From positions 82,678 to 146,677 of the forward strand of contig CAYSHH010000001.1 in assembly GCA_964430945.1 (NCBI GenBank): 64,000 bases of DNA. The letters run 5' to 3'. Of this stretch, positions 28,860 through 52,957 are shown piece after piece (positions within the stretch are counted from its first letter, which is position 1; each line of letters opens with the position of its first letter). Below the pieces are notes generated by a model. That model saw nothing but the letters and a program-made list of their open reading frames with translations, was not told where the DNA came from and ran no database searches. A program made the position numbers and the translations under genes. This DNA is from an uncultured Candidatus Saccharibacteria bacterium. GTDB lineage: Bacteria > Patescibacteriota > UBA1384 > JAMDBS01 > CAYSHH01.

Positions 28860-29248
28860 AATTTACCCCTTTTACCCCACACGAGCGTGTGAGCTAATTA
28901 TTATTAATGTAATTATATCACTTTACAATAATAGGTAGTTGTTGATAACTAAAAATAATCACCAAAATGTGATTATTTTATGACTACAAAGCTCGGACAT
29001 CTCACTCGCTTCGCTCTTTAAAAACCACTCGGTTTTTAGTATTTTCCTCAAACGGGAAAACAATTGTTTTCCCGACCCCTTTCATGTTCGAGCCCTTCAA
29101 ACTACAAAACAAGACGAAAAAAGACGACATAAAGTCATCTTTCTTCGTCTGGCTCCCCGTTATGGTTCAGTACCAAGTATTTAAGGGTGATAATACTCTT
29201 GTCCGATTCCCGTAGTAAATCGATATAGAACTATCACATTATCACAAG

Positions 29249-30604
29249 TTATATATAAACTTTTCTATTTTTTAAGAAAATATCTGTATTAAGACATTTG
29301 AGTAAATCTTGTTTTTCTTGTTTACTGCCACACTCAAAAACATGCTTAATATAGCTTTTTTCATCAATTTTCTTTGGATTTTTGCGTATTTTGAGCTCGG
29401 TTTGTCTACAAAATTCATATACTGATTCACCAAAATTTATAAACTCCTCCATCTTATACCTAACTCTTTTATTATTTTTCACCTGTTTAATAATAAGCAT
29501 TTCATTAAATAGTTTCTCTAACTGTTTTGTTAAATCTTCTTCTCGTATATATGGCTCTTTACAGTCAAGATTTCTGAATTTAGTGCAGTGATAGTAAACA
29601 TATTGTTTTTTAGTGCTGTCCTTGCGAGTCTTAATTTTTTCTGAGGCAGTAACACCTGATCCACAAGCACCGCATTTAAGTATTTTTGTATAATCAAACT
29701 TCTTAGTATTGGGCCAGGTTTTTGGGCATACTACCAGCTTTTTCTGGACTTTATTAAATAAATCGCGACTTATAACTGCTTTGTGTTTAGTCTTGTACCA
29801 TTTCCCAGAACCCTTAGGAAATTCAAATATTCCACAGTAGTATGGATTATTTAATATTGAGTAGATCATACTATAAGATACTCGTTTATTTTTTCTAGTT
29901 CTAAATCTTATTTTATCAAGCCATTTAAAAATATCTCTACCGCTATATCCTTGATACGCTGCTTTCTGAAACATTTTCTTGATAATTGATATCTTCTTGC
30001 GATCAATTTTAATAGTATGATTTACTCTATTGTTTATAAAGCCAAGTGGCGCCATAGTAGGGCGATATCCCATCTCGCATTTTGCCTTCATTCCTCTTTT
30101 GGCATTAATCCCTCTGTTATCATTTTCTAGCTTTGCTTGAGATCCTAATATCATCAACAGGAATTTATCATTAGGTGAATTTCTAAACTTTTGATTATAT
30201 GTTCTAATTTCGGTTAAAAATCCATTATCCATCAAATCTACCAACACACCTAAATCTCCTGCATTACGGCTCAAGCGATCAATAGACCAGCTGATAATAG
30301 CACTATATTTCCCCAATTTAATATCATCAATCAATTGGTTGAAAACGGATCTTTGTCTTGATTCTTTGGCAGAATAGCTTTCGCGAAGAATATTTTTTAC
30401 CTTAATATTGCTATTTTGGGCATACTCCAGCATTTCCTTAACTTGTGAGTCAATAGACATTGCTTGTCTTTCATCTGATTCACTTGACTTGCGAGCATAA
30501 AGGCAATATCTAATTGACTTCTTCTTTTTAAACTCTGCAGTTTGGTTGTTTGAGGTAAAAAATGATGGTATATTTTTCAACTTATCTTTCCTTTCTATAT
30601 ACAT
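29249..30604 (-). CDS. Large serine recombinase (resolvase/invertase N-terminal domain, recombinase domain, zinc-ribbon)
   Basis: 451 aa. Catalytic Ser region CLYARKSSESDERQAMSIDSQ, DRLSRN, Cys-rich zinc ribbon CGACGSG...YYHC. Paralog of the recombinase at 51662-52954. Confidence 0.9.
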   Translation of the reverse strand: MYIERKDKLKNIPSFFTSNNQTAEFKKKKSIRYCLYARKSSESDERQAMSIDSQVKEMLEYAQNSNIKVKNILRESYSAKESRQRSVFNQLIDDIKLGKYSAIISWSIDRLSRNAGDLGVLVDLMDNGFLTEIRTYNQKFRNSPNDKFLLMILGSQAKLENDNRGINAKRGMKAKCEMGYRPTMAPLGFINNRVNHTIKIDRKKISIIKKMFQKAAYQGYSGRDIFKWLDKIRFRTRKNKRVSYSMIYSILNNPYYCGIFEFPKGSGKWYKTKHKAVISRDLFNKVQKKLVVCPKTWPNTKKFDYTKILKCGACGSGVTASEKIKTRKDSTKKQYVYYHCTKFRNLDCKEPYIREEDLTKQLEKLFNEMLIIKQVKNNKRVRYKMEEFINFGESVYEFCRQTELKIRKNPKKIDEKSYIKHVFECGSKQEKQDLLKCLNTDIFLKNRKVYI

Positions 30605-30666
30605 TCAGACTAATTTTTCAGATAAACAATGTCAATAAAATATACTTTAGCAAAATGAGACAAGAC

Positions 30667-30682
30667 AAATGAGACACTATAG
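30667..30682 (+). repeat. Direct repeat copy 1: AAATGAGACACTATAG, preceded by a tandem partial copy AAATGAGACA at 30653-30662
   Basis: Identical 16-mer at 38613-38628 (19 of 21 matches with flanks). The core GACACTATAGAA equals the SP6-promoter core. Confidence 0.7.
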
Positions 30683-30746
30683 AAAAGCAGGAATAAAAAT
30701 CTCAAACTATAATATTTAGATAAAGGTGAATTCAATATATATCCCC

Positions 30747-30776
30747 TTGACAAGCAATAAAACAAAGTGCTATACT
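30747..30776 (+). promoter_or_regulatory. Sigma-70-type promoter of the TetR gene
   Basis: TTGACA, 18-nt spacer, TATACT; 27 nt upstream of the ATG at 30803. Confidence 0.55.
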
Positions 30777-30802
30777 TTATTGGCTTACCGACCGGTAAGT
30801 AA

Positions 30803-31423
30803 TTGAAGGGAAAGTATATGTTAAATATAAACACTAGTTGTGATCAAAAAAAAATACTATATAATACGCAAAAAAAAATTATTGACACTGCTAGTCACTT
30901 ATTTTCTGAATATGGTTATTTTGGTGTCTCGATGAACGATATTGCTAAAAAACTGAATATTACAAAAGCTGCACTTTATTATCATTTTACAAGTAAATCT
31001 GAGATTTATAAAAATGTTCTTGACAAAGCTTTTTGCGATTTAAAAATATCGATATTAGAATTGTCTAAAGAAAAAGATGTAAATAATAGACTAAGAAAAT
31101 TAATTTATAAATACTTAGAAATAGGCACTAAAGAGAAAAATCTAATAAAAGCAATAGTTATTAAAATGCCTTCAACAAATAGAGAAATTATCAAACATAT
31201 TACTAACCTGAGAAGTCAAATTAAATTTATTATAAAACCAATAATTAACGAAATTTTTAAAAAGAAAAAAATAAGTGCTAGAGTGGACAGTGATTTATTG
31301 ACTTCATCACTGCTAAGCACTATGGATGGTTTCATTTTAGAGTATTCGTTTTTAAATAAAAAGATTGAAATAGAAAAATTATCAAATCAAATAACAGATT
31401 TGTTCATACAAGATATTAATTAA
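30803..31423 (+). CDS. TetR/AcrR family transcriptional regulator
   Basis: 206 aa. N-terminal HTH FSEYGYFGVSMNDIAKKLNITKAALYYHF. Confidence 0.85.
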   Translation: MKGKYMLNINTSCDQKKILYNTQKKIIDTASHLFSEYGYFGVSMNDIAKKLNITKAALYYHFTSKSEIYKNVLDKAFCDLKISILELSKEKDVNNRLRKLIYKYLEIGTKEKNLIKAIVIKMPSTNREIIKHITNLRSQIKFIIKPIINEIFKKKKISARVDSDLLTSSLLSTMDGFILEYSFLNKKIEIEKLSNQITDLFIQDIN

Positions 31424-31438
31424 CATGAAGGATTATAT

Positions 31439-34400
31439 ATGAAATTTACAGAAATTTTTGTTAAAAGACCAGTGACAACAATTATGATAATGCTGATTGT
31501 TATTCTTTTGGGTGTAGTTTCTTTAAGTGGTATCTCTTGGGATTTGCTGCCAGAGATCGAACTACCGATGGCAGGAGTGATAACAGTTTATCCAGGATCC
31601 TCTCCAACTGAAGTTGAAGAATTGGTGACCAAACCTCTAGAAACAGAATTAAGCACAGTTAATAATTTAGATTCCGTAAACTCTATTTCACAAGAAAATA
31701 TGTCCATAGTAATGTTTAAATTTAATTGGGGGGTCAATGTTGATGAGGCTGCGATTGAACTTAGGGATAAACTCGAATTAGTAAAAGCAAATCTTCCATC
31801 TGGTATCCAAACGCCAACTGTAATCAAATTTGATCCAACCTTAATGCCTACTATGGAATTGGCTGTTTCTGACGGAAAATCAATAGAAGATTTAACTAAA
31901 ATAATAAACGATACCATCAAACCTGATCTTGAAAAAGTTCCAGGTGTAGCATCTGTTGAACTTATCGGTGGATTGGATTCGGAAATTAAAATACAAGTTG
32001 ATCAAGAAAAAATGAGTCAGGCGGGACTGAGCTACGACCAACTTTTGCAGGTGCTAAAATCTCAAAATCTCTCTATTCCAGCAGGTGAAATAGAAAAAGA
32101 CAACAAAAAAATGGACGTTCGAGCAACTGCATCAATTGATAATATTGATCAGATAAAAGACATAATCGTAGGATATAAAACTGCAAATTTATCTTCCAGT
32201 GCTAATCAAGTCAGCACTGTTTCTGCTTCATATCTTTCCTATCAAGCAATACCTCAACCAGTTTATTTGAAAGATATTGCTGAAGTTGACTGTGATGTTG
32301 AAGAAACAACATCAATTAACAAATTAAATGACCAAAAAGCTGTTGGTCTTTCTATTCGCAAAGAAGGAAGCGCTAATACAGTCAAAGTTTCAAATGAAGT
32401 TAAAGAAAAAATTGATAGAATTCAAGAGGAGAACAATGTTGATATTGCAATTATTATGAATCAAGCAGAAATTGTTGAGAATTCTATAAACAATGTTGCA
32501 ATAACTGGAATTATCGGAGCAATTATAGCGATTATTATTTTATTTTTCTTTTTAAAAGATATAGGAAGCGCTTTGATTGTTGGCATTTCAATTCCTTTTT
32601 CAGTTATTGCCACATTTGCCTTGATGTATGCATCTGGCATTTCCATGAATCTTATGAGTTTGGGTGGATTGGTTTTAGGGATTGGCATGCTTGTGGATAA
32701 TTCTATTGTTGTATTGGAAAACATTTATAGGCACTTCAAAGAGAAAGGTAAAACTGCATTTCAAGCAGCAATTGAAGGAACTAAAGAAGTGGCTGGTGCT
32801 ATCACTGCATCTACACTCACTACTTTGGCAGTTTTCTTGCCAGTAGTATTTTTAGGTGGTTTAGCGGGACAATTATTTAAAGATTTTTCTTTGACTATTG
32901 TTTTTTCTTTAAGTGCATCATTATTGGTTGCATTAACAATACTTCCTATGCTGGCTTCTAAATTTATGAAAAAAAATAATGCAAGACAAGCAGTAAAAGA
33001 AAATAAATTATTAAAAATATATGAGCCAATAATAAAATGGTCTCTAAAAAATAGATTTGCTGTTATTGTAATTGCAATAGGTCTATTGGCGGGGAGTATT
33101 GCATTGATACCAGCTGTTGGAACCGAGTTGATTCCCGACATTGATCAAGGATATGTTGCAATATCTGCAAAATTACCCAATGGAACTAAATTAGAAAAAA
33201 GTGAAGAGCTGGCTGAAGAAATTGAAGTGATGCTTTTGGATTACGAGGAGATTAGCAACATCTCTGCAAATATTGGAAGTGACAGTCAAAATATGGCTTC
33301 AATTATGGGTGACAGCGGAAACAATATTGTTAAAATTAATGCAAAGCTTAAAGCAAAAAATGAACGAGATATTTCTACTGACGAATTTGTCAAAGAAGTC
33401 AAATCAAAATTGGAGGTTATAACAGGCGGTAGAGCCGAATCCTCAATTGCCAAAACAAATGCCATGATGGATATTGGAACAACGATTGAATATAAAATAA
33501 GTGGCAATGATGATCAAGATATTAAAAAAATCAGTGACAATCTTGTGGATAAAATTAAAAATATTAACGGACTTATAAATGTATCCTCTGATATTTCTGA
33601 GCAAAAGCCGGAAATTGAAATTTTAGTAGACAATAACAAAGCAATGAGTCAAGGGCTAGTGCCTGCTCAAGTCATTAATGCTGTTTACACCACTACAGGA
33701 ACTACAAAAGTCATGGAAATAGAAAAAGATGATGATATTATGGATGTAAATATTGAGCTTCGAAAAGAAGATAAAGCATCAATAGATGATCTTAAACAAT
33801 TAGAGCTAACTACCACTCAAGGCAAAAAAATAAAATTAGAGGAGGTTGCTGAAATTAAAGACTCTTTAGGACCAGTAAAAATTACCAGAGAAAATCAATC
33901 ACGTACAGCAACAATTTCTGCTAGTTTAAACGATACATCTCTTAGCAAAGCCGACTCTCAAATTCAAGAAATAATTGACAGTCTTGAAATCCCTTCAGGG
34001 CTAGAAATCACTCAAAGCGGTATACATGAAATGCAGGATGAATCATTTGATAATATTTATATTGCCTTAATCTTTGCTGCAATATTGGTGTATATGATTA
34101 TGGCAGCTCAATTTGAACGTTTGCTACATCCTTTTATCATCATGTTTTGTATACCCCTTGCACTTATAGGGGCGATATTAGGACTTTTAATGACAAATAT
34201 ACCTTTAGGTATTACTGCGATGATTGGCTTTGTAGTTTTGGTGGGTATAGTGATTAATAATGGTATTGTATTGGTTACTTATGTGGAGCAATTACAAGAA
34301 AAAGGAATGTCAAAGGAAGAAGCTCTTATCGAAGGTGGAAAAACAAGATTAAGACCTATCCTTATGACTGCAATTACTACAATTGTTGGATTAATTCCTT

Positions 34401-34564
34401 TAGCTCTAAATCTTGGCGAGGGATCAGAAATGATGAAACCTGTAGCTATTGTAGTAATCGGTGGAATGATTACCTCAACTTTGCTTACATTAATAGTTAT
34501 TCCTGTAGTATACTCTTTGCTTGATAGAAAAAAGACTGTAAAAGCTGATTCAATTCAAAATTAA
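31439..34564 (+). CDS. RND superfamily efflux transporter permease (AcrB/HAE-like, 12 TM, two large periplasmic loops)
   Basis: 1041 aa. N-terminus FVKRPVTTIMIMLIVILLGVVSLSGISWDLLPEIELP. Duplicated 6-TM bundles. No adjacent MFP or OMP gene. Confidence 0.85.
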   Translation: MKFTEIFVKRPVTTIMIMLIVILLGVVSLSGISWDLLPEIELPMAGVITVYPGSSPTEVEELVTKPLETELSTVNNLDSVNSISQENMSIVMFKFNWGVNVDEAAIELRDKLELVKANLPSGIQTPTVIKFDPTLMPTMELAVSDGKSIEDLTKIINDTIKPDLEKVPGVASVELIGGLDSEIKIQVDQEKMSQAGLSYDQLLQVLKSQNLSIPAGEIEKDNKKMDVRATASIDNIDQIKDIIVGYKTANLSSSANQVSTVSASYLSYQAIPQPVYLKDIAEVDCDVEETTSINKLNDQKAVGLSIRKEGSANTVKVSNEVKEKIDRIQEENNVDIAIIMNQAEIVENSINNVAITGIIGAIIAIIILFFFLKDIGSALIVGISIPFSVIATFALMYASGISMNLMSLGGLVLGIGMLVDNSIVVLENIYRHFKEKGKTAFQAAIEGTKEVAGAITASTLTTLAVFLPVVFLGGLAGQLFKDFSLTIVFSLSASLLVALTILPMLASKFMKKNNARQAVKENKLLKIYEPIIKWSLKNRFAVIVIAIGLLAGSIALIPAVGTELIPDIDQGYVAISAKLPNGTKLEKSEELAEEIEVMLLDYEEISNISANIGSDSQNMASIMGDSGNNIVKINAKLKAKNERDISTDEFVKEVKSKLEVITGGRAESSIAKTNAMMDIGTTIEYKISGNDDQDIKKISDNLVDKIKNINGLINVSSDISEQKPEIEILVDNNKAMSQGLVPAQVINAVYTTTGTTKVMEIEKDDDIMDVNIELRKEDKASIDDLKQLELTTTQGKKIKLEEVAEIKDSLGPVKITRENQSRTATISASLNDTSLSKADSQIQEIIDSLEIPSGLEITQSGIHEMQDESFDNIYIALIFAAILVYMIMAAQFERLLHPFIIMFCIPLALIGAILGLLMTNIPLGITAMIGFVVLVGIVINNGIVLVTYVEQLQEKGMSKEEALIEGGKTRLRPILMTAITTIVGLIPLALNLGEGSEMMKPVAIVVIGGMITSTLLTLIVIPVVYSLLDRKKTVKADSIQN

Positions 34565-34620
34565 TATTGAGAATATTACAAATAGTAAATAAATATTAAC
34601 CAGTTCAAAAGTGATATTAG

Positions 34621-35100
34621 ATGAAAAAATATCCTGATAAAAATTTTATTTCAGAGGGTATATACGGAATGGTCACATGTTTGGCAGTTATTTTGATTAT
34701 GGAAAGCCATTTATCAAATTATTGGGATGCATCTTTAACCTTATTTGGTTCTGTATTGGTAGTTACACTCGCAAAAGCATATAGTGATACTATTGCTGAA
34801 GTGATTACTCAAAAAAGAAAATTAGAGTTGTCAGAATTAAGAATAGTCTGGTATCATGCAGCCCCCATACTTATATCTGCAAATATCCCCACATTAATTA
34901 TTTTACTGTCTGGCTTGGGATTATATTCTGTGTCCACAGCTTTATATGTATCTAAAATATTCATTTATATTTTATTGTTTTTATATGGAATTAAGATGGG
35001 TCAGCTTATGCATGAATCCAGGATAAGGATAATATTCAGTGGGCTTATGACATGTGGTATAGGATTGTTAATTAGTTTTATTAAAATGTTTTTTCACTAA
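34621..35100 (+). CDS. Hypothetical polytopic membrane protein
   Basis: 159 aa, 4-5 TM helices, no recognisable motif. Confidence 0.4.
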   Translation: MKKYPDKNFISEGIYGMVTCLAVILIMESHLSNYWDASLTLFGSVLVVTLAKAYSDTIAEVITQKRKLELSELRIVWYHAAPILISANIPTLIILLSGLGLYSVSTALYVSKIFIYILLFLYGIKMGQLMHESRIRIIFSGLMTCGIGLLISFIKMFFH

Positions 35101-35129
35101 ATGTATAAATATTAAATAATTAATAGATA

Positions 35130-36083
35130 ATGGCTATCATTGAAGTTCAAAATCTAACCAAAAAGTTTGGCGAAAAAGCTGCGGTAAACGGCTTAAGTTT
35201 TGATGTGGAAAAAAATCAAATTTTTGGTCTTCTTGGAACAAATGGGGCTGGCAAATCAACAACTATTAATATTCTAAATGGTCTTTTAGTTCCAGATAAA
35301 GGAAAAGTTAAAATTCTTGGATATGATATTAAAAATATTGAAAAGGTAAGGAATAAGATTGCTTTAGTTCCTCAATCAACTTCTTTATATGAAGATTTAA
35401 CAGCACTCGAAAATATTGAATTTTTTGCAGGAATGTATATTAGTGATGAAAGAAAACTGCAGAGCTCCATCAAGTGTACTGTTAATAAACTCAATATTAA
35501 AAATATTTTAACAAAACAAGTTTCCCAACTTTCCGGAGGATATAAAAGAATTGTTTCTATTGCATGTGCATTAGCTACAAACCCAAAAATTGTATTTTTT
35601 GATGAGCCACTTACAGGAATAGATATTCATACAAATCAAATAATATTAAACATTTTAGAAGATCTTAAAAAGGATATGACAATAATCTTTACCACTCATT
35701 CAATAAAAGAAGCAGAAAAACTATGCGATTATGTTTTTTTTATTGATAAGGGTCAATGTTTTCTTCAAGGAAAAGTATCAGATATTATAGATAGATATAT
35801 CAAAAAAAATGGTCAGAATATAATTATAAAATTTAATACCTTGCGTGAAACTAGGAAATTTGCAAAATTTTTGCAATCAAATAAAACTAGCATCCTCAAT
35901 CAAAAAAATGAAGGTAAGTCGATAGTATTAGATGTTTCTAATCCAAATTTTGGAATTAAAGAAATATTTTTACTATCTCAAAAAGCTTCTACTACAATTA
36001 AAGATATCAAAATAAATAAACCTAATTTAGAAATAGTTTTTAATAAAATATATAACGATGAAATTATTAAGAATAATTATTAA
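35130..36083 (+). CDS. ABC transporter ATP-binding protein
   Basis: Walker A GTNGAGKST, ABC signature LSGGYKR, Walker B IVFFDEP, H-loop. Confidence 0.9.
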   Translation: MAIIEVQNLTKKFGEKAAVNGLSFDVEKNQIFGLLGTNGAGKSTTINILNGLLVPDKGKVKILGYDIKNIEKVRNKIALVPQSTSLYEDLTALENIEFFAGMYISDERKLQSSIKCTVNKLNIKNILTKQVSQLSGGYKRIVSIACALATNPKIVFFDEPLTGIDIHTNQIILNILEDLKKDMTIIFTTHSIKEAEKLCDYVFFIDKGQCFLQGKVSDIIDRYIKKNGQNIIIKFNTLRETRKFAKFLQSNKTSILNQKNEGKSIVLDVSNPNFGIKEIFLLSQKASTTIKDIKINKPNLEIVFNKIYNDEIIKNNY

Positions 36084-37551
36084 AGAATTCAAGCAGATCA
36101 CTCATGACAGAGGATTTATATTAACTCTTATATTTATCCCTCTTGTTTTGATGATAATTTTCAATGCCACTTTTAAGTCAGATGTAAAAAATCTAGACAC
36201 AATAATTATTGATAATGATAATTCAGTTTATTCAGAAAGCATTAAAAATGCCGCTCGTGATTCAGAATATTTTAATGTTATTGAGGACGATATTTCCTTT
36301 GATCAAGCCAAAGAAAAATTAAAAACAAGTGAGGTCAGATCAATTATTGTTGTGCCGGAAGGATTTTCTCAAAAATTAGATAATGCTGAAAAAACTGATA
36401 TGAAAATTTATATCGATTCTTCTGATTATACAGTTTATAATGTTATTAAATCTGCCTCGGGTCAACTTTTGAAAGATTCTCTAAAAGATATAATTAATCT
36501 TATTGTAGCAGGTCTTGAAACTGAAAAGGATGTAAATCAAAATAAAATTAATGAGATAAATGAGCTGACCGATAATTTAAAAGTCAAAGCGGATCGAACA
36601 AAAGCAAATTTAGACAATCTATCGTATGATTTTGATGATTTTAGAACACAGATTAATGATATGGAAAGCTCTATTACTGATCTTGATAAGTCGTTAAATG
36701 CACTTCCCAAGGATTCGGACGTTGTAAAACAATTTAGTGAAATCAAAAATGAATTCGATAGTTTAAAAGATAAGGTTAATAATCATCAGAAATCGGTTGA
36801 TAGCATTGAATATGATATAGATGGAATCAAGGTAGATTATGACTCTATTAAAGAAAAGGTGCAAAATATTGATGTTAAACTTGAGAATCTGAAAAAAGAT
36901 TTTCTTTCTCAGCCGATAGAATTTGAAAAGCAATTTGAATATGGAGAAATATCTTACTTTCAATATTTGACCCCCGGAATTATATCACTCATCTTATTTT
37001 TTATAGGTATATCATTAACACTTCTTAATCTAATTGAAGAAAAACAATCTAAAACGCTGTATCGCATGATGACTACTCCAGTAAATAAATGGGAGATATT
37101 TTTTGGAAAATTTTTTCTTTTTTTTGTGATAGGTATTTTTGAAGCAGGATATATACTCTTAATTTCTATACTTTTCTTTAATGTAAATATTGCTGGAAGC
37201 ATCTTGTATGTTTTTTATATTTTAGTAGTCCTTATGTCTGCATCAATTGGTCTAGGTCTTATGCTTTCAGAATTTGTAAAAACTACAAAACAAGCATTTA
37301 TGCTCGGACCACTTATAATTATTCCTTCAATTTTAATTTCCCAGACCTTTTCACCAGTAGAAGTAATGCCTCAATATATGCGATATGTCGCATATCTAAT
37401 ACCGATGTATTATTCTAATAATGCACTTCGTGATGTAATGATAAAGGGTGCATCTTTTTCAACTATTGCCCCAGAAATTATTCTTCTTACGCTTTATGCT
37501 TTTATCACGGTTTCACTTGGAGCATTAATCTTTAGAAAAAAAATCCAATAA
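36058..37551 (+). CDS. ABC-2 family permease with a large extracytoplasmic coiled-coil domain (YhgE/Pip-like)
   Basis: 497 aa. N-terminal TM helix, then a 250-aa coiled-coil-rich loop and a C-terminal 5-TM ABC-2 domain. Overlaps the ATPase gene by 26 nt. Confidence 0.75.
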   Translation: MKLLRIIIKEFKQITHDRGFILTLIFIPLVLMIIFNATFKSDVKNLDTIIIDNDNSVYSESIKNAARDSEYFNVIEDDISFDQAKEKLKTSEVRSIIVVPEGFSQKLDNAEKTDMKIYIDSSDYTVYNVIKSASGQLLKDSLKDIINLIVAGLETEKDVNQNKINEINELTDNLKVKADRTKANLDNLSYDFDDFRTQINDMESSITDLDKSLNALPKDSDVVKQFSEIKNEFDSLKDKVNNHQKSVDSIEYDIDGIKVDYDSIKEKVQNIDVKLENLKKDFLSQPIEFEKQFEYGEISYFQYLTPGIISLILFFIGISLTLLNLIEEKQSKTLYRMMTTPVNKWEIFFGKFFLFFVIGIFEAGYILLISILFFNVNIAGSILYVFYILVVLMSASIGLGLMLSEFVKTTKQAFMLGPLIIIPSILISQTFSPVEVMPQYMRYVAYLIPMYYSNNALRDVMIKGASFSTIAPEIILLTLYAFITVSLGALIFRKKIQ

Positions 37552-37600
37552 AAAGTCGTTTATTGTGAAATAAATAAAAATATTATCAAACATTATCGTT

Positions 37601-38446
37601 ATGAAAAATTATAAAGAAGCACCAGGTATTCTGGATTCAATTAAGAAAATATTCCGTACTAAACCTCCTAAAATATGCTTAGTTCTTGGTAGTGGGGGTA
37701 CTTGGGGTCTAGCACATATTGGGGTTTTAAAAGTCCTAGAAAAGAATGGTATCGTACCAAATTATATAGTCGGTTGTAGTATGGGGTCTGTAATTGGTGC
37801 TATATATGCACTAAATAAGGACTTAAATAAAATTGAAAAGATATCATCGGAGCTTGGTAAGTGGAATCTAATTAAACTTGCTGATGTAAATATACCCAAA
37901 AAATCATTAATAACTGGCAAGAAAATCAGAAATTTTCTAGAAAATATTATTGCCGATAAAACATTTTCCGATACTATAATTCCTATTAAAATCATTGCTA
38001 CTGACTTAGAAAAAGGAGAACAAATGGTTTTAAGTCGAGGAAGTTTACTAGATGCGGTTATGGCAAGTTCAAGCATTCCTGGGATATTCCCACCAGTTAA
38101 ATTAGATGAAAAACTATTAGTTGACGGAGGTGTAATTAACGCCACTCCAATTAATGTAGCTAGAAGTTTTAAGCCAGATATTATTATTGGAGTAGATTTG
38201 ACTATAAAACATAAAGCTGTTTTTAAAAACCCAAATATCTATCAAGTACTTATGCGATCATTTGATATATTAAGGAACCAATCTACTAAATTTTTTATTG
38301 AAGAAGACAAAAATACTATTATTATAAGACCAAATGTTGCTAAGATGGAATCATATAAACTATATGATTTGAATATGTTTATTAAAGAAGGAGAAAAAGC
38401 AACAAAAAAATGTTTACCGCAAATAAATGCATTATTAAATGATTAA
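37601..38446 (+). CDS. Patatin-like phospholipase
   Basis: Oxyanion hole GSGGTWG, nucleophile elbow GCSMGS, catalytic DGG in VDGGVINATP. Confidence 0.85.
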   Translation: MKNYKEAPGILDSIKKIFRTKPPKICLVLGSGGTWGLAHIGVLKVLEKNGIVPNYIVGCSMGSVIGAIYALNKDLNKIEKISSELGKWNLIKLADVNIPKKSLITGKKIRNFLENIIADKTFSDTIIPIKIIATDLEKGEQMVLSRGSLLDAVMASSSIPGIFPPVKLDEKLLVDGGVINATPINVARSFKPDIIIGVDLTIKHKAVFKNPNIYQVLMRSFDILRNQSTKFFIEEDKNTIIIRPNVAKMESYKLYDLNMFIKEGEKATKKCLPQINALLND

Positions 38447-38612
38447 TCACACTAAAAAACATTTTCTTCACACAATCTATTATATATTTCAAAACAGACA
38501 ATTTAGTATAAAAAGTCCCAAACTGCATCTGGCCGGGGACATGTCGGTCTGGACATTTTGTCTCTTTACCAGTACCTATATAAAGGTTTTAGGTGTTTAA
38601 AGCAACAGGTAG

Positions 38613-38628
38613 AAATGAGACACTATAG
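38613..38628 (+). repeat. Direct repeat copy 2: AAATGAGACACTATAG
   Basis: Exact copy of 30667-30682. Lies 44 nt upstream of the ATG at 38672. Confidence 0.7.
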
Positions 38629-38671
38629 GAAATGGTTGTTTTAATTCTCATTTTCTGATTAGAATATAAAT

Positions 38672-39586
38672 ATGAAGAAAAAAATATTTCAACTAATAAT
38701 TGGCGGTGAATTTACTGCTCAACCAAAACATAAATCCAAGATCATTCCTATAAACCTTCTAGACCATTTTTATAACACCAACCCAAACGATTTAGGAAGT
38801 ATTATAGATTTTGCCAATAAATATAGTTTTGGTGGATATATTGTACCTAATAGAAATTGTTCAATAAAAGATAGATTCTTAAATCTTCAAGATAAATATA
38901 ATCCGATTATCAGACATCTTGTTGACACTAAAACGATTAATTATCATGATCTTACAATTATTAACAAAGATTTAAAATCATCTTTCCCCTATATTCGTTT
39001 AAGAAATACTGTTAATAATCTTGAAAAAATTAAAAGAGGTTTTGCTTTTTATGATTTAAAAAATGTTCATGGCGAAAAACCAGAATACAAAATCACAAAC
39101 ATTGGTGCATTTGAAGTTGATAAAGATAAAAGCGCTCATATTGAAATAACTATAAAGGTTCCTGCTGAGTCTAAGACAAAATGGTATGTTGAGCAAATAG
39201 ATGACGGCGCATCAATGCTTGAAAAAATATTTCCCGATCAAGACTGGGGAGCAAACAAAGAATATCTCAAAAATATTATTTTAAAAAACGGAAATATCAA
39301 ATTTGATTCCAATAAACAGGTAAAATCAATTGAAATGAATTTCTACCTTGGTAAGACAAATTTTTTTAAAGAAGAACTAGTAGCAGTCTGGACATCACAA
39401 AATGCAGAATCTTTTCTAGCTAAAAGAATCTGGGATTATGTAAACAGTGAGTTTATAAATAAAGGAGAACGTAAGTTATGTAAAATTTGCGCGAAAATAC
39501 ACACTGGACGCTCTAAAGATTATTGTTCAAGAGAAGCTTGTCGCAAAGAATGGGATAGTAGACGAAAAAAACGTAAAAAGAAGTAA
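38672..39586 (+). CDS. Hypothetical protein with C-terminal zinc-ribbon and basic tail
   Basis: 304 aa. No recognisable catalytic motif. C-terminus CKICAKIH...CSREAC, then RKEWDSRRKKRKKK. Confidence 0.4.
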   Translation: MKKKIFQLIIGGEFTAQPKHKSKIIPINLLDHFYNTNPNDLGSIIDFANKYSFGGYIVPNRNCSIKDRFLNLQDKYNPIIRHLVDTKTINYHDLTIINKDLKSSFPYIRLRNTVNNLEKIKRGFAFYDLKNVHGEKPEYKITNIGAFEVDKDKSAHIEITIKVPAESKTKWYVEQIDDGASMLEKIFPDQDWGANKEYLKNIILKNGNIKFDSNKQVKSIEMNFYLGKTNFFKEELVAVWTSQNAESFLAKRIWDYVNSEFINKGERKLCKICAKIHTGRSKDYCSREACRKEWDSRRKKRKKK

Positions 39587-39660
39587 AATTCCGAGCATTT
39601 TCCGAGTTTGAACTCTCAAAAAACGCCTTGTGGTAAGATAAAAATAATAAAAATAATAAA

Positions 39661-39683
39661 CGCACCCGAAAGGTGCTTTTTTA
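39661..39683 (+). terminator. Rho-independent terminator
   Basis: GCACCCGAAAGGTGCTTTTTT. Confidence 0.8.
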
Positions 39684-39701
39684 GTTAAGAAAGGAATAAA
39701 A

Positions 39702-39896
39702 ATGCCACAAGACAAAGAGAAACAAGCGCTAGAGCTTGTAAATTCAATTCGAGGGCAAGTCCTTATTGGATACGCCTTAGAAACAGCTATTAATAAGTTT
39801 TCAATATTTAAAGGAAGATACAAACAAGTATCAGTGATTGCTGACATGCAATTGATGCTTGATAATATTTTCTTCATCGGAAAGGCACAAAAATGA
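39702..39896 (+). CDS. Small hypothetical protein (64 aa)
   Basis: SD GAAAGGAAT upstream. The stop overlaps the start of the ParB-MTase gene (ATGA). Confidence 0.4.
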   Translation: MPQDKEKQALELVNSIRGQVLIGYALETAINKFSIFKGRYKQVSVIADMQLMLDNIFFIGKAQK

Positions 39897-41188
39897 AAAA
39901 ATTAAACTTAAAAACTGTCTATGTAGACACAAAATCACTAAAATTCTGTGAATATAACCCAAGGATTTTTAGTGATAAAGCGATTAGTGATCTTAAAAAG
40001 TCGATCAAAAAAAGCGGATTTGTTTCTCCAATTTTGGCTAACTCAAATTCCAAAAGATACATGATTGTAATTGGAGGGAACCTTCGGTTATATGTTGCTC
40101 GCAAGCTTGGCATTAAAAAGGTGCCGGTCAACTACATCAATGTGGAAAATATTGAAGATGAAAAAAGATTAAATCTGGCTTTAAATCGTGTGAGCGGTGA
40201 ATGGAATTATGAAGCACTTAAAAACTTTAAAATTAAAACGCTTCTAGACATAGGTTTTGATGAAAAGGATTTAAGTTTAATTTGGAACGATGTTTTGTCC
40301 ATAGAAAATGATGATTTTGATGAAGCCAAAGAGGTTGAAGCAATTAAGATTCCAAAAACCAAACTTGGAGATTTATACGAACTCGGGATACATCGCTTGA
40401 TTTGCGGAAATTCCGAGAACCCGGAAGTTATAAAACGATTAGTTGGTAAAGAAAAAGTAAGTATGATAAATTGCGATCCAATCTATAACATCACCTACGA
40501 TTACTCCAAAGGACTAGGCAAAAAAGACAAGTATCATGCAGAAGTAAAAGACACCAGAAGTATTGAGGAATACAAGAAGCTATTGAAGACAACTATTGAA
40601 AATGGATTGGCAGTTTCCAAAGATGATGTCCACTGCTTTTACTTCTGTGATCAAAGGTATATAGGTTTACTTCAAAGTATTTATTCAGAACTAGGATTAG
40701 ATAATAAACGAGTATGTTTATGGATTAAAAATAATATGAATCCGACACCTCAGGTCGCATTTTCAAAGTGTTATGAAGCTGTCGTATATAGTACCCGAGG
40801 AAATCCATACTTGGCGTCAATTAATAATCTTAATGAAATCTTAAACAAAGAAATTGGCACCGGCAATAGAACAATTGATGACATTTTAGATTTATTGGAT
40901 ATATGGCTTGTTAAAAGATTGCCAACATCTCAATATGAGCATCCTACCAGCAAGCCGCCTTCACTTTACGAAAAAGCTCTCAGAAGATGCACCAGGCTCA
41001 ATGATATTGTACTTGACATGTTTGCCGGCGGTGGCAGTCAAATGTCAGCCTGCGAGCAGTTAAAGCGCAAATGCTATATGGTCGAGCTTGAGCCGAGGTT
41101 CTGTGATGTGATCATCAAACGTTATGAAACACTAACAGGGAATAAAGCAAAATTAATTAGAAAAGGAGATTCAAATGAAAATAAATAA
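39893..41188 (+). CDS. ParB-like nuclease domain fused to a DNA methyltransferase (N6-adenine/N4-cytosine, beta class)
   Basis: 431 aa. N-terminal ParB/Srx-like region (VSPILANSNSKRYMIVIGGNLRLYVARKLG), catalytic motif IV DPIYNI, C-terminal AdoMet motif I DMFAGGGS. Confidence 0.8.
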   Translation: MKKLNLKTVYVDTKSLKFCEYNPRIFSDKAISDLKKSIKKSGFVSPILANSNSKRYMIVIGGNLRLYVARKLGIKKVPVNYINVENIEDEKRLNLALNRVSGEWNYEALKNFKIKTLLDIGFDEKDLSLIWNDVLSIENDDFDEAKEVEAIKIPKTKLGDLYELGIHRLICGNSENPEVIKRLVGKEKVSMINCDPIYNITYDYSKGLGKKDKYHAEVKDTRSIEEYKKLLKTTIENGLAVSKDDVHCFYFCDQRYIGLLQSIYSELGLDNKRVCLWIKNNMNPTPQVAFSKCYEAVVYSTRGNPYLASINNLNEILNKEIGTGNRTIDDILDLLDIWLVKRLPTSQYEHPTSKPPSLYEKALRRCTRLNDIVLDMFAGGGSQMSACEQLKRKCYMVELEPRFCDVIIKRYETLTGNKAKLIRKGDSNENK

Positions 41189-41921
41189 AAACGATTTAAT
41201 TATTTTGGGCAATCACAGACTTTTTGCAGGTGATTGCACCAAACCAGAAAACATCAAAAGACTTATTGGTGACGAAAAAGTAACTTCCATAATCGTAGAT
41301 GTACCTTACGGAATTCAAGCCACCCAATCTAAAGAATATCTGCAAACCAAAACTAAACATAAAAACATTATTAATGATCAATATCAATCCAATACAGATT
41401 ATACCAAATTCATGAGAGATTGGCTTTCTGTCATAAAACCTTATCTTACAATTACCAACTCATATTATATCTTCAATTCCGACAAGATGATCTTTGCTCT
41501 TAAGGATGCCCTGGACAAAGAAAACTTTTATTTTTCCCAGCTTCTTATTTGGATTAAAAACCATCCAGTAATTGGACGGCTGGATTATCTTCCCCAGCAC
41601 GAGCTTGTAGCTTATGGATGGTATAAAAAACACAAATTCAGAAAATCCAAAGATAAAAGTGTCCAGTACTTTCCAAAACCCAACAAAAGTGAACTGCACG
41701 CCACTATGAAACCAGTAGGATTAATCAGAAATCTTATCTTAAACAGCACTGAAATTGGTGACATTGTCTATGATGGGTTTTTGGGTTCAGGAACCGCTAT
41801 TATTGCAGCAGAGCATACCAGAAGACGTTGTTTTGGAGCTGAAATTGATTTGGATCATTGCCGAACAATTATTAAACGTTTTAGTAAATTAACCGGCTTA
41901 AAAGCCAGAAAGGAGAATTAA
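41175..41921 (+). CDS. DNA methyltransferase (amino-MTase, motif IV before motif I)
   Basis: 248 aa. Motif IV DVPYG, motif I VYDGFLGSGTAIIAAE. Overlaps the upstream gene by 14 nt. Confidence 0.8.
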   Translation: MKINKNDLIILGNHRLFAGDCTKPENIKRLIGDEKVTSIIVDVPYGIQATQSKEYLQTKTKHKNIINDQYQSNTDYTKFMRDWLSVIKPYLTITNSYYIFNSDKMIFALKDALDKENFYFSQLLIWIKNHPVIGRLDYLPQHELVAYGWYKKHKFRKSKDKSVQYFPKPNKSELHATMKPVGLIRNLILNSTEIGDIVYDGFLGSGTAIIAAEHTRRRCFGAEIDLDHCRTIIKRFSKLTGLKARKEN

Positions 41922-41923
41922 AA

Positions 41924-42331
41924 ATGATTAAAAACAAAACTAAAATTAAACAATTGTTTGTCGAGCAATTGAGTAAAACGCCGATCATCCAAGTTTGTTG
42001 CGACAAGTTAAATGTCAGTAGGGCGACATTTTATAGGATGAAAGCCAGTGACAAGAAGTTTAGCCAGGAAGTAGACAAGGCTTTAGATGAAGGACGAGAA
42101 CTAGTTAATGATATTGCAGAATCAAGATTATTAACTGCTATTCAAAATGGTAATCTTTCCAGTATTATGTACTGGCTCAAGTTCAATAACTCCCGTTATG
42201 GCAATAAAATTGAGATTTCCGGCTCAATTAATACTACTAACGAGCTGACACCCCAGCAGCTAAAAAATATTAAAAAAGCGTTGGCTCTTGCCAACATTAA
42301 GGAGAATAATTATGAAAGAACAAATAAATAA
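41924..42331 (+). CDS. Phage terminase small subunit-like HTH protein
   Basis: 135 aa. HTH CDKLNVSRATFYRMKASD. Sits immediately upstream of, and overlapping, the terminase large subunit. Confidence 0.6.
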   Translation: MIKNKTKIKQLFVEQLSKTPIIQVCCDKLNVSRATFYRMKASDKKFSQEVDKALDEGRELVNDIAESRLLTAIQNGNLSSIMYWLKFNNSRYGNKIEISGSINTTNELTPQQLKNIKKALALANIKENNYERTNK

Positions 42332-43889
42332 TAAAAATTATCAGGAAATTAAGAAATTTGTTGAAAGCATTATCAGTGATCCAGCAAGTCGCAGAGAAAT
42401 AGTTAAGCGAAGTCATCTATATTTCTTCTGCACTTACTTTAGTAAATACCTAACTTACCAGATGGCGCCACTTCATCACGAGCTATTTCGTATCAGTGAA
42501 GATGATAATATTAATCTGGCAATAATTTCTGCCTTCAGAAATTGTGGAAAAAGCGTAATTATGAATCTATCATATATACTCTGGGCGGTATTGGGAAAAC
42601 CACAAAAAAAATTCATACTCATTATTTCTCAAACCAGTGATCAAGCCAGACAGCATTTTGCCAATTTAAGACGAGAGTTGGAGACAAATGAGCTTTTGAA
42701 AAAAGATCTTGGTCCATTTAAGCAGGATTTCACCTGGAATAATGGTGCTTTAGTTATTCCCAAATACAATGCCAAGATTATGGCTTGTTCAACTGAGCAG
42801 TCAATTCGAGGATTAAGATATGGCGAGCATCGTCCTGACCTATTGATTCTTGATGATATTGAAGACATAAACAGCGTAAAAACTAGAGAATCCCGTGATA
42901 AAACATACACTTGGTTTGATTCAGAAATAACTCCAATTGGTGACAGAAAAACAAAGACAATAATCTTGGGAAATATTTTGCATCAGGATTCAATGATTAA
43001 AAGATTAGAATCAGAAATTGACGCAAAAACTAGAGACGGTATTTATCGAGAGTATCCTATTATGGATGATAATGATAATATTCTCTGGTCTGGCAAATAT
43101 CCAACCATAAAAGAAATTGATGAAGAAAAAAGGAAACGCAACAGATTCACTTGGCTTAGAGAATTTATGCTTAGAATTATTGATGATAAAGAACCAGTAA
43201 TTGACCCTGATTGGATACATTATTATCAAGAGCTTCCAAAACCATTAAGGAATCAAGGATATGCTTATGCCGTAGGTATAGATCTGGCGGTATCAGAGAA
43301 AGAGCATGCAGACTATACTGCAATTGTAACAGCAAAAGTTATGAACGAAAAAAATGGAAAAAGGATATATATTCTCCCTAATCCAATCAACACCAAAGTG
43401 CGTATGCCCGATACAATCAATAATATTATAAACATAGATAATACATTGGATGATGGAAGATGCAAATTCTATATCGAAGACGTAGGTACTCAAAGAGGAT
43501 TAGCTCAGTTATTGGAGGAAAAAAAGATTGAAACATACAATGTGAAAATTGGTCAGAATGATAAAAGAACCAGACTCTCTATGACATCTAACAGCATCAA
43601 AGAAGGAAAAATATTATTTCCCGAAAAAGGATGCGAAGAACTCATCAGACAGATTCTTGAATTTAACATCTTAAAGCACGATGATTTAATGGATGCATTC
43701 TCTACATTGTTTCAAGGTATTCAGGAAGAACCACCATCAACTTCCTGTGGTATTACAATCATTGATTTAGGACCTGAATTTAAACCAAGAGATCCATTGG
43801 AATACGAAAAATATGCAAAAGAAAAAAGGATTAAGCTTGGACCAGATGGTCTTCCAGTAAGAAAAAATGGAAGAATTGTTAGACTTTAA
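42312..43889 (+). CDS. Phage terminase large subunit
   Basis: Start set at MKEQINN (SD AAGGAG 8 nt upstream). ATPase Walker A-like FRNCGKS, Walker B LLILDDIED, RNase H-like nuclease domain AVGIDLAVSEKEHADYTAIV...DDLMDAF. Confidence 0.85.
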   Translation: MKEQINNKNYQEIKKFVESIISDPASRREIVKRSHLYFFCTYFSKYLTYQMAPLHHELFRISEDDNINLAIISAFRNCGKSVIMNLSYILWAVLGKPQKKFILIISQTSDQARQHFANLRRELETNELLKKDLGPFKQDFTWNNGALVIPKYNAKIMACSTEQSIRGLRYGEHRPDLLILDDIEDINSVKTRESRDKTYTWFDSEITPIGDRKTKTIILGNILHQDSMIKRLESEIDAKTRDGIYREYPIMDDNDNILWSGKYPTIKEIDEEKRKRNRFTWLREFMLRIIDDKEPVIDPDWIHYYQELPKPLRNQGYAYAVGIDLAVSEKEHADYTAIVTAKVMNEKNGKRIYILPNPINTKVRMPDTINNIINIDNTLDDGRCKFYIEDVGTQRGLAQLLEEKKIETYNVKIGQNDKRTRLSMTSNSIKEGKILFPEKGCEELIRQILEFNILKHDDLMDAFSTLFQGIQEEPPSTSCGITIIDLGPEFKPRDPLEYEKYAKEKRIKLGPDGLPVRKNGRIVRL

Positions 43890-43930
43890 GTCAGTTATCT
43901 GTCATTACTGTATGTCAGAAAGGAATATAT

Positions 43931-44185
43931 ATGAAAACAAGATACATTGTTAAAGATAATAAACTAATCTTATATTCTCAAAATAAAACCACTATTCCCA
44001 TATCTCAAATTCTTTGGATAAAATTCTCTGATAATCAGAAAAACTCTAAAGTAATACTTGAGACAATATCAGGTATTATAGCTGAATTTAAGATTAATCC
44101 CGAAAATAGAACAAAATTCAAAAACTTAATGGATCTGCATAGAAAGAATGTAATCTTAAAAGAGTTAGAAATAAAGAAGAAATAA
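43931..44185 (+). CDS. Small hypothetical protein
   Basis: 84 aa. SD GAAAGGAAT. Confidence 0.4.
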   Translation: MKTRYIVKDNKLILYSQNKTTIPISQILWIKFSDNQKNSKVILETISGIIAEFKINPENRTKFKNLMDLHRKNVILKELEIKKK

Positions 44186-44198
44186 TAAAGTGAAAATA

Positions 44199-44232
44199 AG
44201 CTAGGGATTAATTATCCTTAGCTTATTTTATT
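44199..44232. terminator. Bidirectional terminator at the convergence of the phage-like module and the minus-strand operon
   Basis: ATAAGCTAGGGA-ttaatta-TCCTTAGCTTATTTT: 12-bp stem with one mismatch. Confidence 0.7.
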
Positions 44233-44237
44233 AATTC

Positions 44238-45609: not shown

Positions 45610-45627
45610 AAATCATTATTTATGAAT

Positions 45628-49155: not shown

Positions 49156-49165
49156 TTAAAATCCC

Positions 49166-50086: not shown

Positions 50087-50145
50087 ACTTAAATTATACT
50101 TCCAAACAGGTTAGAACACAACCTTTTAATAAAAAGTAAACGTAT

Positions 50146-51255: not shown

Positions 51256-51344
51256 ATCTTCCTTTCTATATAACTAAAAAACCACAGTTAAAAACTGTGA
51301 TTAAATAATAAAATATAAATTGTAATTTAATATTACTTTCATAT

Positions 51345-52954: not shown

Positions 52955-52957
52955 TTT

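Follow-up and report, generated by a model that had tools for sequence, protein, structure and literature searches.

Sites that adjoin genes of large serine recombinases (LSRs) include the attP and attB sites of phiC31, Bxb1 and A118-type systems. Att sites of the LSR systems studied to date measure less than 50 bp, typically with no accessory binding sites beside them; only a 2-bp core is required for crossover, and the RDF of Bxb1 shows no DNA binding (PMC1470463). The window analysed here, a 64-kb stretch of DNA, holds two copies of a cis-element (the site) which likewise adjoin LSR genes. Copy 2 and several of its relatives form an imperfect dyad of about 41 bp, a typical att size. Furthermore, boxes found near the sites mimic tRNA 3' ends, are real element ends and behave like LSR half-sites. 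However, the junctions are located 60-220 nt (1.5 kb in element E1) from the 16-nt repeat within the site. In addition, the inner and outer half-sites have the same sequence and are accompanied by extra direct copies, two features that are not known for LSR att sites.

The composite SCCmec islands of the Ccr serine recombinases may be a second analogue. As in the window, LSR-bearing cargo cassettes appear to have accumulated one after another at a single chromosomal locus, with repeated end sequences between the cassettes and efflux- or resistance-type cargo. The direct repeats of SCC and its integration-site sequences are one and the same. In the window, by contrast, the equivalents would be the boxes, and the 16-mers are internal. 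A third possible parallel is offered by the Cox (P2), Apl (186) and Xis (lambda) arrays, in which short asymmetric repeats about one helical turn apart are placed near att and over a promoter. A small element-specific protein couples transcription control to excision in those systems, and such a coupling is putative here. The arrays differ in that their systems use tyrosine integrases, and the array in the window includes an inverted half-site.

Two adjacent LSR elements

The window was found to have two site copies because two such elements, E1 and E2, are integrated side by side. As delimited from sequence, E1 (about 29148-38527) consists of box1, LSR1, site copy 1 and a TetR-RND-ABC-patatin cargo, and E2 (about 38528-52980) of box2, site copy 2, hyp304, methylases, TerS/TerL, defence-like cargo, LSR2 and a right arm. 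The features are:

29150-29174, + strand: box1, TGGCTCCCCGTTATGGTTCAGTACC, tRNA-3'-end-like LSR half-site, left terminus of E1
29249-30604, - strand: LSR1, large serine recombinase (Pfam Resolvase, Recombinase, Zn_ribbon_recom; PHROG 95 integrase)
30648-30709, + strand: site copy 1, complete, containing the 16-mer (30667-30682)
30676-30705, - strand: predicted sigma-70-type promoter TTGAGA-18-TATAGT toward LSR1 (10/12 in a consensus scan)
30747-30798, + strand: TetR promoter (30747-30776) and palindrome TTACCGACCGGTAA (30785-30798)
30803-38446, + strand: E1 cargo (Pfam: TetR, RND pump (ACR_tran), 159-aa ORF, ABC ATPase, ABC-2 permease, patatin-like phospholipase)
38528-38554, + strand: TC plus box2, TGGCCGGGGACATGTCGGTCTGGAC, tRNA-3'-like half-site, left terminus of E2
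38613-38653, + strand: site copy 2, without the first direct half-site
38672-43889, + strand: E2 backbone operon (Pfam, PHROGs: hyp304, ParB-N/DNA methylase, DNA methylase, TerS-like HTH, TerL-like terminase)
44452-51255, - strand: E2 cargo (Pfam: DUF2130, 1175-aa SF1 helicase with REase_MTES_1575/DUF559 nuclease domain, DUF5655, 369-aa ORF)
51662-52954, + strand: LSR2, large serine recombinase (Pfam), last gene of E2 as typical in the family
52958-52980, + strand: E2 right-end arm, GGTTCGAGTCCGATTTCTGGTCA, tRNA-3'-like, inverted relative to box2

The true start of LSR1 may be a TTG near 30581, behind an AAGGAA Shine-Dalgarno motif. The related locus L001 encodes a 95% identical LSR1 homologue with the same neighbours; the whole LSR1-TetR-RND segment is 95% identical, whereas identity falls to 79% in the flanking DUF308 gene. 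A separate sigma-70 promoter for TetR downstream of the repeat, noted in the first-pass annotation, is present as TTGACA-18-TATACT, and the palindrome behind it is likely the TetR operator. The LSRs of the relatives share 55-59% identity with LSR2 and 50-56% with LSR1. The E2 backbone, hyp304-ParB/MTase-MTase-TerS-TerL followed by an LSR, has the same order in L017-L024 and partly in L007-L009. hyp304 carries a C-terminal CxxC..H..C..C motif, and family and fold searches with it gave no match.

Box1 is preceded by TC, giving the hexamer TCTGGC at 29148-29153, which is repeated at 38528-38533. We infer the right end of E1 only from this hexamer and the position beside box2. The hexamers could possibly be a crossover overlap. 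Box2 itself (38530-38554) is unique within the window and is conserved in L017, L018-L024, L028 and L030; L003 and L032 carry a box of the box1 type. A resemblance was seen when the boxes were aligned with real antisense tRNA 3' ends. The right arm of E2 has 13 nt in common with the T-arm of tRNA-Asn (53081-53155, - strand), and in L007 and L008 an opposite-strand tRNA is located about 220 nt past the LSR.

The first-pass annotation had offered, as one reading, that the two 16-mers are att-type direct repeats delimiting an inserted cargo module of 7.9 kb. This reading is correct in outline but not in its particulars. The TetR-patatin genes do form mobile cargo, and the repeats do belong to element ends; the mobile unit, however, includes LSR1, and its junctions are at the boxes (29150-29174 and 38530-38554). 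Element/flank breakpoints were observed at boxes rather than at sites in five comparisons. L018 and L019 are 100% identical rightwards of the box and unrelated leftwards, contigs L023 and L024 begin at the box, homology between L030 and L018 begins at the box, and identity between the window and L001, at 99% in its final 117 nt, ends between 29147 and 29148. Att-type or target-site repeats made by insertion of the module would explain why the 16-mers share strand and direction and lie on either side of the module, and why the two 41-bp dyads are identical in their left halves and different in their right halves, like hybrid sites. This origin is nevertheless very improbable, since the single-unit relatives L024, L026 and L028 already have a complete site beside hyp304. 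Copy 2 also has a native context, the order box, site and hyp304 being that of L024, L026, L028, L018 and L030, and a 2-bp core suffices for LSR crossover (PMC1470463).

Architecture and conservation of the site

The 16-mer, AAATGAGACACTATAG, is the core and best-conserved part of a site of about 60 bp. Within the site, an A-rich spacer separates two to three phased direct half-sites (AAATGAGAC) from an inverted half-site. The direct half-sites, AAATGAKAC, are spaced 9-14 nt apart (about 9-10 nt in most variants), and the inverted half-site follows 20-25 nt downstream. In copy 1 the direct half-sites AAATGAGACA (30653-30662), AAGAC and AAATGAGACAC (30667-30677) are followed by TATAG-AAAAG and the inverted half-site TCTCA (30700-30704). 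In copy 2 the 16-mer (38613-38628), a 17-nt spacer and the inverted half-site TCTCATTT (38646-38653) together form the 41-bp dyad. E1 and E2 have one site each.

The exact 16-nt repeat at 30667-30682 and 38613-38628 (+ strand) and the half copy at 30653-30662 were confirmed as first described, and with flanks included the copies agree at 20/22 positions (A-x-16mer-x-AAA). Both are intergenic and 5' of genes on the + strand, namely TetR (30803) and the 304-aa ORF (38672). The exact repeat by itself is statistically weak evidence. Nine direct repeats with an exact match of 16 nt or longer occur in the window, compared to 2.8-5.4 in Markov shuffles, so that three to five are expected at random in such AT-rich DNA. 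That the pair arose by chance is already refuted by the comparative data, and we give this explanation almost no credence: the motif is conserved across loci, both copies are intergenic in a context typical of the family, and an independently built family model picks them out. This model, R2, was made from related loci, with the window and L001 excluded, and was scanned filter-free over all 64 kb. Copy 1 came out on top (E 6.7e-7), followed by copy 2, although copy 2 alone is marginal (E 0.012), the third-ranked match having an E of 0.021.

The site recurs in at least ten related LSR elements from other metagenomes. Instances of the same architecture were found in L001, L002, L003, L017, L024, L026, L028 (two), L030, L032 and L033, and L018 carries a variant. 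The pattern ATG(NN)AC-N1-9-ATG(NN)AC gave eight matches in 414 kb, both strands included, and 8/8 were sites. Over 28 nt, copy 1 shares 96% identity with L026 and L028 (27/28 nt in L028), whereas the adjacent protein of these loci is only 44-48% identical (44% for hyp304 of L028), which indicates that the sequence of the site is under constraint. Copy 1 is also 79% identical, over 66 nt, to the site that precedes the hyp304 homologue in L024. On these comparisons, the motif is non-random, and the site belongs to a family of LSR mobile elements of Patescibacteria, which carry it near their ends. Conserved among the relatives is AAATGAKAC...AATGAKACA(C/G), and the half-sites covary across loci, GAGAC occurring with GTCTC, GGTAC with GTACC and GGCAC with GTGCC.

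These data also bear on the other first-pass reading, that a T7/SP6-type single-subunit RNA polymerase, encoded elsewhere, uses the copies as promoters. The motif has ten contiguous nucleotides, GACACTATAG, in common with the SP6 core, followed by A/G-rich sequence, and each copy is 5' of a + strand gene. The reported match of 15 of 18 positions from -13 to +5 was found for copy 1; copy 2 reaches 14/18. However, the upstream specificity region diverges, the full 23-mer matches at only 17/23 positions, and a core match of at least 15/18 occurs in 5% of shuffled windows. The TATAG motif, the -1/+1 part, is replaced in relatives by TACTT, TACAA, GATCA and others. There is one copy per element rather than per transcription unit, and the motif also occurs in tandem and inverted, as part of an array of direct and inverted half-sites. 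With its covarying inverted half-site it behaves like a protein-binding site, unlike the asymmetric RNA polymerase promoters. A search for the polymerase gene gave no RNAP domain among the ORFs of the window, where all ORFs of at least 430 aa fell to other families, and none is listed for the related loci. A promoter of this type is thus not supported and is extremely improbable.

Possible roles of the site

In our reading, the site is a protein-binding array of operator type or with an accessory role. The covariation of half-sites in direct and inverted copies identifies it as a probable protein-recognition sequence. The site is not confined to a single transcription unit, which counts against an operator. 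Downstream promoters are found at distances between 0 and about 120 nt. Directly after the site, L032 and L033 have the LSR gene's 3' end, and nothing obvious would be regulated that way. The constant partner is the box and no gene, and an att-linked or a replication or packaging role therefore fits as well as an operator.

It is conceivable but rather unlikely that the site has an accessory or architectural function in LSR recombination, steering integration versus excision. A small directionality factor or the recombinase complex would bind the phased repeats beside one att arm, in the manner of the Xis, Cox or Apl arrays of tyrosine integrases. In agreement with this, box and LSR are the sole constant partners of the site, which is always internal to the terminal box, in fixed orientation and at 60-220 nt regardless of the following gene; the box-site unit stands alone beside the LSR 3' end in L032 and L033, and the direct half-sites are about 9-10 nt apart in most variants. 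E1 is an exception in distance, since the whole LSR1 gene (1.45 kb) separates box1 from the site, about 1.5 kb in total. Moreover, box type and half-site type vary independently of each other, and accessory sites are not typical of LSR systems (PMC1470463).

A replication origin or a pac site was considered improbable. E2-type elements encode TerS and TerL with no structural genes inside their ends, and such terminase-bearing, capsid-less satellite-like elements would depend on a pac site and probably also on an origin; the E1 copy would then permit replication or packaging in trans. With direct repeats, an A-rich tract and a partial inverted repeat immediately before the first gene, the arrangement resembles iteron/rep layouts of the pPS10 and pSC101 type, with their inverted-repeat operator before rep. 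The GATAC variant TGATACACA agrees at 8/9 positions with the DnaA-box consensus. In contrast to iteron origins, only two to three short repeats of about 10 bp are present, and the first gene, hyp304, is not recognisable as a Rep initiator. It is absent from L002 and L003, which both carry the site, and in L002, L032 and L033 the site occurs with no hyp304 or terminase in view.

An operator-type platform shared by the two adjacent LSR elements, neither a phage-RNAP promoter nor a crossover site, is the explanation we hold to be somewhat probable. Most likely, the site would be bound by an element-specific DNA-binding protein. In E1 it overlaps the predicted sigma-70 promoter of LSR1, whose -10 is the reverse complement of ACTATA in the 16-mer and whose -35 is the inverted half-site. 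Equivalents were read from the sequence of L024 (TTGAGA-17-TATAGT) and L002 (TTGATC-18-TATAGT); this antisense promoter has no conserved counterpart in L026, L028, L003 and L017. In E2-type elements the site is found directly 5' of the operon, which has the LSR as its last gene in compact relatives. Occupancy of the site would therefore set the expression of the recombinase and packaging genes of these elements.

The 16-nt repeat and its resemblance to the SP6 promoter

The 16-nt direct repeat AAATGAGACACTATAG was confirmed as two exact plus-strand copies at 30667-30682 (copy 1) and 38613-38628 (copy 2), and a tandem half copy, AAATGAGACA, was confirmed at 30653-30662. With flanks included, the two copies agree at 20 of 22 positions. 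The window (32% GC) has nine exact direct repeats that are 16 nt or longer, Markov shuffles yielding three to five, and an identity of at least 15/18 to the SP6 core was reached in 5% of shuffled windows. By itself the repeat is therefore not remarkable. No Rfam match was obtained at either copy, and the exact 16-mer gave three single matches in IMG/VR, all in large unrelated phage contigs and compatible with chance.

In the first-pass annotation, one reading of the copies was as promoters for an SP6/T7-type single-subunit RNA polymerase. Copy 1 matches SP6 positions -13 to +5 at 15/18 and copy 2 at 14/18, with only 17/23 matches over the whole 23-nt promoter. The reading is not supported, for want of a polymerase ORF in the window, a constant core and a promoter-like number of sites. 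A single-subunit RNA polymerase domain was absent from all window ORFs of at least 430 aa and from the gene lists of the related loci examined. The -7 to +1 core CACTATAG was not kept among relatives of the window sites, where TATAG is replaced by TACTT, TACAA, TATAA, GATCA or CCATC; judged from this comparison, the SP6 resemblance comes from TATAG, a variable part of the site. One site or one tandem pair was found per element in 30 sources (363 kb), and the window has two sites, one in each of its elements. The layout expected of promoters, one copy before each transcription unit, was not seen in the elements examined. A plus-strand sigma-70 promoter formed by the motif was also dropped, no -35 being present at the proper spacing. 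A phage-type RNA polymerase regulon is a false lead that can be removed; as far as the window and the related loci show, there is no sign of one in this Patescibacteria genome.

Two adjoining serine recombinase elements

The copies lie in two adjoining elements, E1 and E2, which carry the large serine recombinases (LSRs) LSR1 and LSR2, both with full domain sets. The window looks like part of a Patescibacteria chromosome, and homologues of the LSRs are filed under such names in public records.

Features of the window in and around E1 and E2 (coordinates; strand; feature)
up to 28639; host genes FtsH, two tRNA-Met, TMEM175, DUF308
29249-30604; minus; LSR1, large serine recombinase
30667-30682; plus; 16-mer copy 1
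30803-38446; plus; TetR, RND pump, 159-aa ORF, ABC ATPase, ABC-2 permease, patatin
38613-38628; plus; 16-mer copy 2
38672-43889; plus; hyp304 (304 aa), ParB-N/methylase, methylase, TerS-like, TerL-like
44452-51255; minus; DUF2130, helicase-nuclease, DUF5655, 369-aa ORF
51662-52954; plus; LSR2
53081-53155; minus; tRNA-Asn, with RpoD and DnaG beyond

Related loci (numbered with the prefix L) were used to locate the ends. The LSR1 of L001 is 95% identical, and LSR1, copy 1, TetR and RND are all kept at 95%, the adjoining DUF308 gene being only 79% identical. Identity between the window and L001 stops exactly between 29147 and 29148; LSR1 and its cargo therefore travel together, with a left end at 29148. 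Next to this end lies a short tRNA-3'-end-like sequence, or box (29150-29174), of a type common to L003 and L032. The other box type, ATGGCGGGACAGTCCGGTCTGGAAC, occurs once in the window, at 38530-38554 (box2). L018 and L019 were 100% identical over 11.5 kb and unrelated left of this box, the homology of L030 with L018 starts at it, and contigs L023 and L024 begin exactly there. In all of these comparisons, the one with L001 included, the breakpoint was at the left edge of a box. The left end of E1 was thus set by comparison with L001, and that of E2-type elements in three contexts.

All boxes, as well as the arm after LSR2 (52958-52980, inverted), aligned with antisense tRNA 3' ends, having a TGG and stretches that resemble the acceptor and the T-arm. 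A complete tRNA was considered at box2 but ruled out, as ARAGORN was negative and the acceptor 5' strand is missing. We infer that the boxes are LSR half-sites and that E1 extends over approximately 29148-38527 and E2 over approximately 38528-52980. Both have an LSR gene and ends with differing flanks, and so are LSR-mobilised integrative elements. The right arm of E2 adjoins tRNA-Asn, and 13 nt (GGTTCGAGTCCGA) are common to this arm and, inverted, the T-arm of that tRNA. Past the LSR, an opposite-strand tRNA-Gly was seen after about 220 nt in L007 and L008, and a tRNA-Asp after about 1.6 kb in L009.

The hexamer TCTGGC at both E1 junctions (29148-53 and 38528-33) suggests that the left junction of E2 may have been the integration site of E1, whose right end is putatively placed at about 38527. 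No further box-like arms were found in the window when this end was sought, nor was a close patatin relative, the sole match being the identical sequence from a second assembly. The order and sequence patatin-box2-copy 2-hyp304 recurred exactly in an assembly from another run. L028 has two boxes in tandem (928-950 and 1367-1389, about 440 nt apart) preceding two different sites, a GATAC type and then a GAGAC type, and L030 has GGTAC-type and GAGAC-type sites in tandem; these arrangements suggest repeated accretion at element left ends.

The other first-pass reading was that the repeats are att-type sequences around an inserted TetR-patatin module. It was partly right, since the repeats do mark element ends and the module is mobile cargo; the att-type sequences, however, are the boxes, the mobile unit takes in LSR1, and the repeat was not made by insertion. 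The 16-mer was rejected as an LSR att core, since one copy is 83 nt and the other about 1.5 kb inward of the element boundary. An insertion-made duplication was likewise rejected: each copy belongs to a separate unit of box and site, and the single units of L024, L026, L028 and L017 already hold the full site. The proposed presence/absence comparison for the 7.9-kb segment between the copies found no relative lacking that segment alone.

Homologues of hyp304, the first gene of E2, belong to an operon that is compact and conserved, with the order hyp304-ParB/MTase-(MTase)-TerS-TerL-LSR. Portions of this backbone adjoin LSRs in GTDB genomes, followed by an opposite-strand tRNA. E2 is made up of the backbone and LSR2, and 7 kb of defence-like cargo separates LSR2 from TerL. 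Genes for capsid, portal or tail proteins were not seen between the ends of the E2-type backbone (window 38672-52980; L017-L024), and E2-type elements may form a terminase-bearing, satellite-like element family of Patescibacteria. The helicase-nuclease and its neighbours are defence-like cargo inside E2. Encoded at 45628-49155 (minus strand), it is a 1175-aa SF1 helicase (AAA_11/AAA_12) fused to REase_MTES_1575/DUF559, flanked by the DUF2130 and DUF5655 genes.

The RND cargo of E1 (31439-34564) is a full-length AcrB-type transporter (Pfam E 7e-255); the lineage of this genome is generally regarded as lacking an outer membrane. A perfect palindrome, TTACCGACCGGTAA, at 30785-30798, after the TetR promoter and before the gene start, is likely the TetR operator, separate from the 16-mer. 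An exact repeat of 14 nt, TTCCTTTCTATATA (TATATAGAAAGGAA in reverse complement), was found at 30588-30601 and 51259-51272, where it forms the Shine-Dalgarno regions of LSR1 and the 369-aa ORF (minus strand). The repeat suggests a start of LSR1 at a TTG near 30581, not at the ATG of 30604. A LOOT RNA match (Rfam RF03000; 51399-51536, minus strand; 59.4 bits, gathering score 46.4, E 4.9e-9) lies in the gap of 400 nt that separates the 369-aa ORF from LSR2. The surrounding region (51276-51487) is 74% identical to L002 8312-8520, which lies beside a 369-aa-ORF homologue and an LSR. Among the tRNAs, ARAGORN called at 11574-11649 a tRNA-Ile (anticodon TAT), an isoacceptor that is uncommon in bacteria.

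Architecture and conservation of the site

The 16-mer is the core of a site of about 60 bp. Each related element has a half-site array downstream of the box, in fixed orientation, at a distance of 60-220 nt, and AAATGAKAC...AATGAKACA(C/G) together with an A-tract is conserved in relatives.

Half-site arrays in related loci
L024: AAATGAGACGAGACAAATGATACACTATAAAAAGAC...GTCTCAAAT
L026, L028: AAATGAGACGAGACAAATGAGACACTACTTGGGGGTCTCTGAAAAAGTCTCAAA
L017: TGTCTCATTT...AAATGAGACAAATGAGACACTAC
L002, L003, L028 (second site): AAAATGATACACAATGATACA(C/G)...
L018, L030: AAAATGGAACAAAATGGTACAC...GTACCATTTT
L033: AATGGCACATAATGGCACAC...TGTGCCATT

Copy 1 is a complete instance of the site, which accounts for the tandem half copy. 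Copy 2 occupies the native position (box2, 58 nt, site, hyp304), without the first half-site. Model R2, built from related loci with the window and L001 excluded, had its best window match at copy 1 (E 6.7e-7) and its second at copy 2 (E 0.012). A generic tandem half-site pattern gave zero false positives in 414 kb. The window site and L028 have 27 of 28 nt in common, although the L028 hyp304 is only 44% identical.

Tandem copies match within each of the half-site variants GAGAC, GATAC, GGTAC and GGCAC, and matching inverted copies were found for three variants (GAGAC/GTCTC, GGTAC/GTACC and GGCAC/GTGCC). The GATAC loci L002 and L003 gave no clear inverted match. Copy 2, L018, L024 and L028 have a dyad of about 41 bp, with extra direct half-sites also present, and L033 has a dyad of 32 bp. 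Of the variants, only GATAC (TGATACACA) resembles the DnaA box, agreeing with 8 of the 9 positions in the consensus TTWTNCACA.

GATAC-variant sites
L002: 11760-11790, minus
L003: 14060-14100, minus
L028: 1515-1545

In GTDB genomes, LSR relatives were all at most 52% identical and none had a recognisable site. In IMG/VR the box pattern matched once only, inside coding sequence from a high-GC phage.

Predicted role of the site and its meaning

The repeated half-sites change in concert, as would be expected of an operator-type array. Because the tandem copies have a spacing of about one helical turn, the array includes an inverted copy and change between elements is concerted, it is probably the recognition sequence of an element-specific DNA-binding protein. 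The E1 array overlaps the best predicted LSR1 promoter (TTGAGA-18-TATAGT, minus strand), and in E2-type elements the array is just 5' of the operon ending with the LSR. On account of these two positions, the preferred reading is an operator-type site, which would set expression of recombinase and packaging genes. Predicted promoters lie 0-120 nt downstream of the site in other loci. In two loci, L032 and L033, the unit of box and site lies directly against the 3' end of the LSR gene, and no regulated gene is evident there. An operator function is only predicted, because there are no more than candidate binders, these two loci have no obvious target and the box is constantly associated with the site.

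Candidate binders, all of them guesses, are the LSR, hyp304, the TerS-like HTH protein, the ParB-N/methylase and small HTH ORFs. Some loci that carry the site lack hyp304. This protein had no Pfam or PHROG match, its AF2 model (pLDDT 73) gave no meaningful PDB fold match (TM about 0.12, to Cas12f), and hhalign showed no relationship with hyp369 or an L003 ORF.

Two other, less likely readings are kept alive by the constant association with the box. The site could be an accessory recombination site of the LSR, with the half-site array acting in cis, although this would be unusual, since the LSRs studied so far act on sites shorter than 50 bp and typically have no accessory sites (PMC1470463). 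Alternatively, it could be an ori or pac of the terminase-bearing, capsid-less elements. It is conceivable, if rather improbable, that box and site form a two-part recombination locus in which the array steers LSR directionality or target choice, for example accretion of cassettes such as E1 at the attL of a resident element.

Searches of IMG/VR with hyp304, LSR1 and the hyp304 alignment gave no relatives, and exact-protein look-ups of the window ORFs gave no useful match. Neither annotated phage records nor IMG/VR yielded the site, the boxes or the element family, the E2-type family did not turn up in INPHARED either, and a literature search found no reports of such elements. In kind, the features are ordinary for mobile elements: the elements are integrative, their att sites are tRNA-like and a predicted binding site is repeated.

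Mobile elements of this lineage are little studied. With two tandem serine recombinase elements delineated, and efflux and lipase cargo on one, those genes are mobile in the lineage. The compact cis-element and the tRNA-like end boxes are usable for finding and bounding such elements in metagenomes. Large serine integrases are widely used genome-engineering tools, thought to need only sites of less than 50 bp. If the site were an accessory recombination, pac or ori site, it would be a new control layer for these enzymes, and a two-part locus, if true, would make terminase-bearing, capsid-less elements of Patescibacteria the source of the first LSR system to depend on an accessory site.
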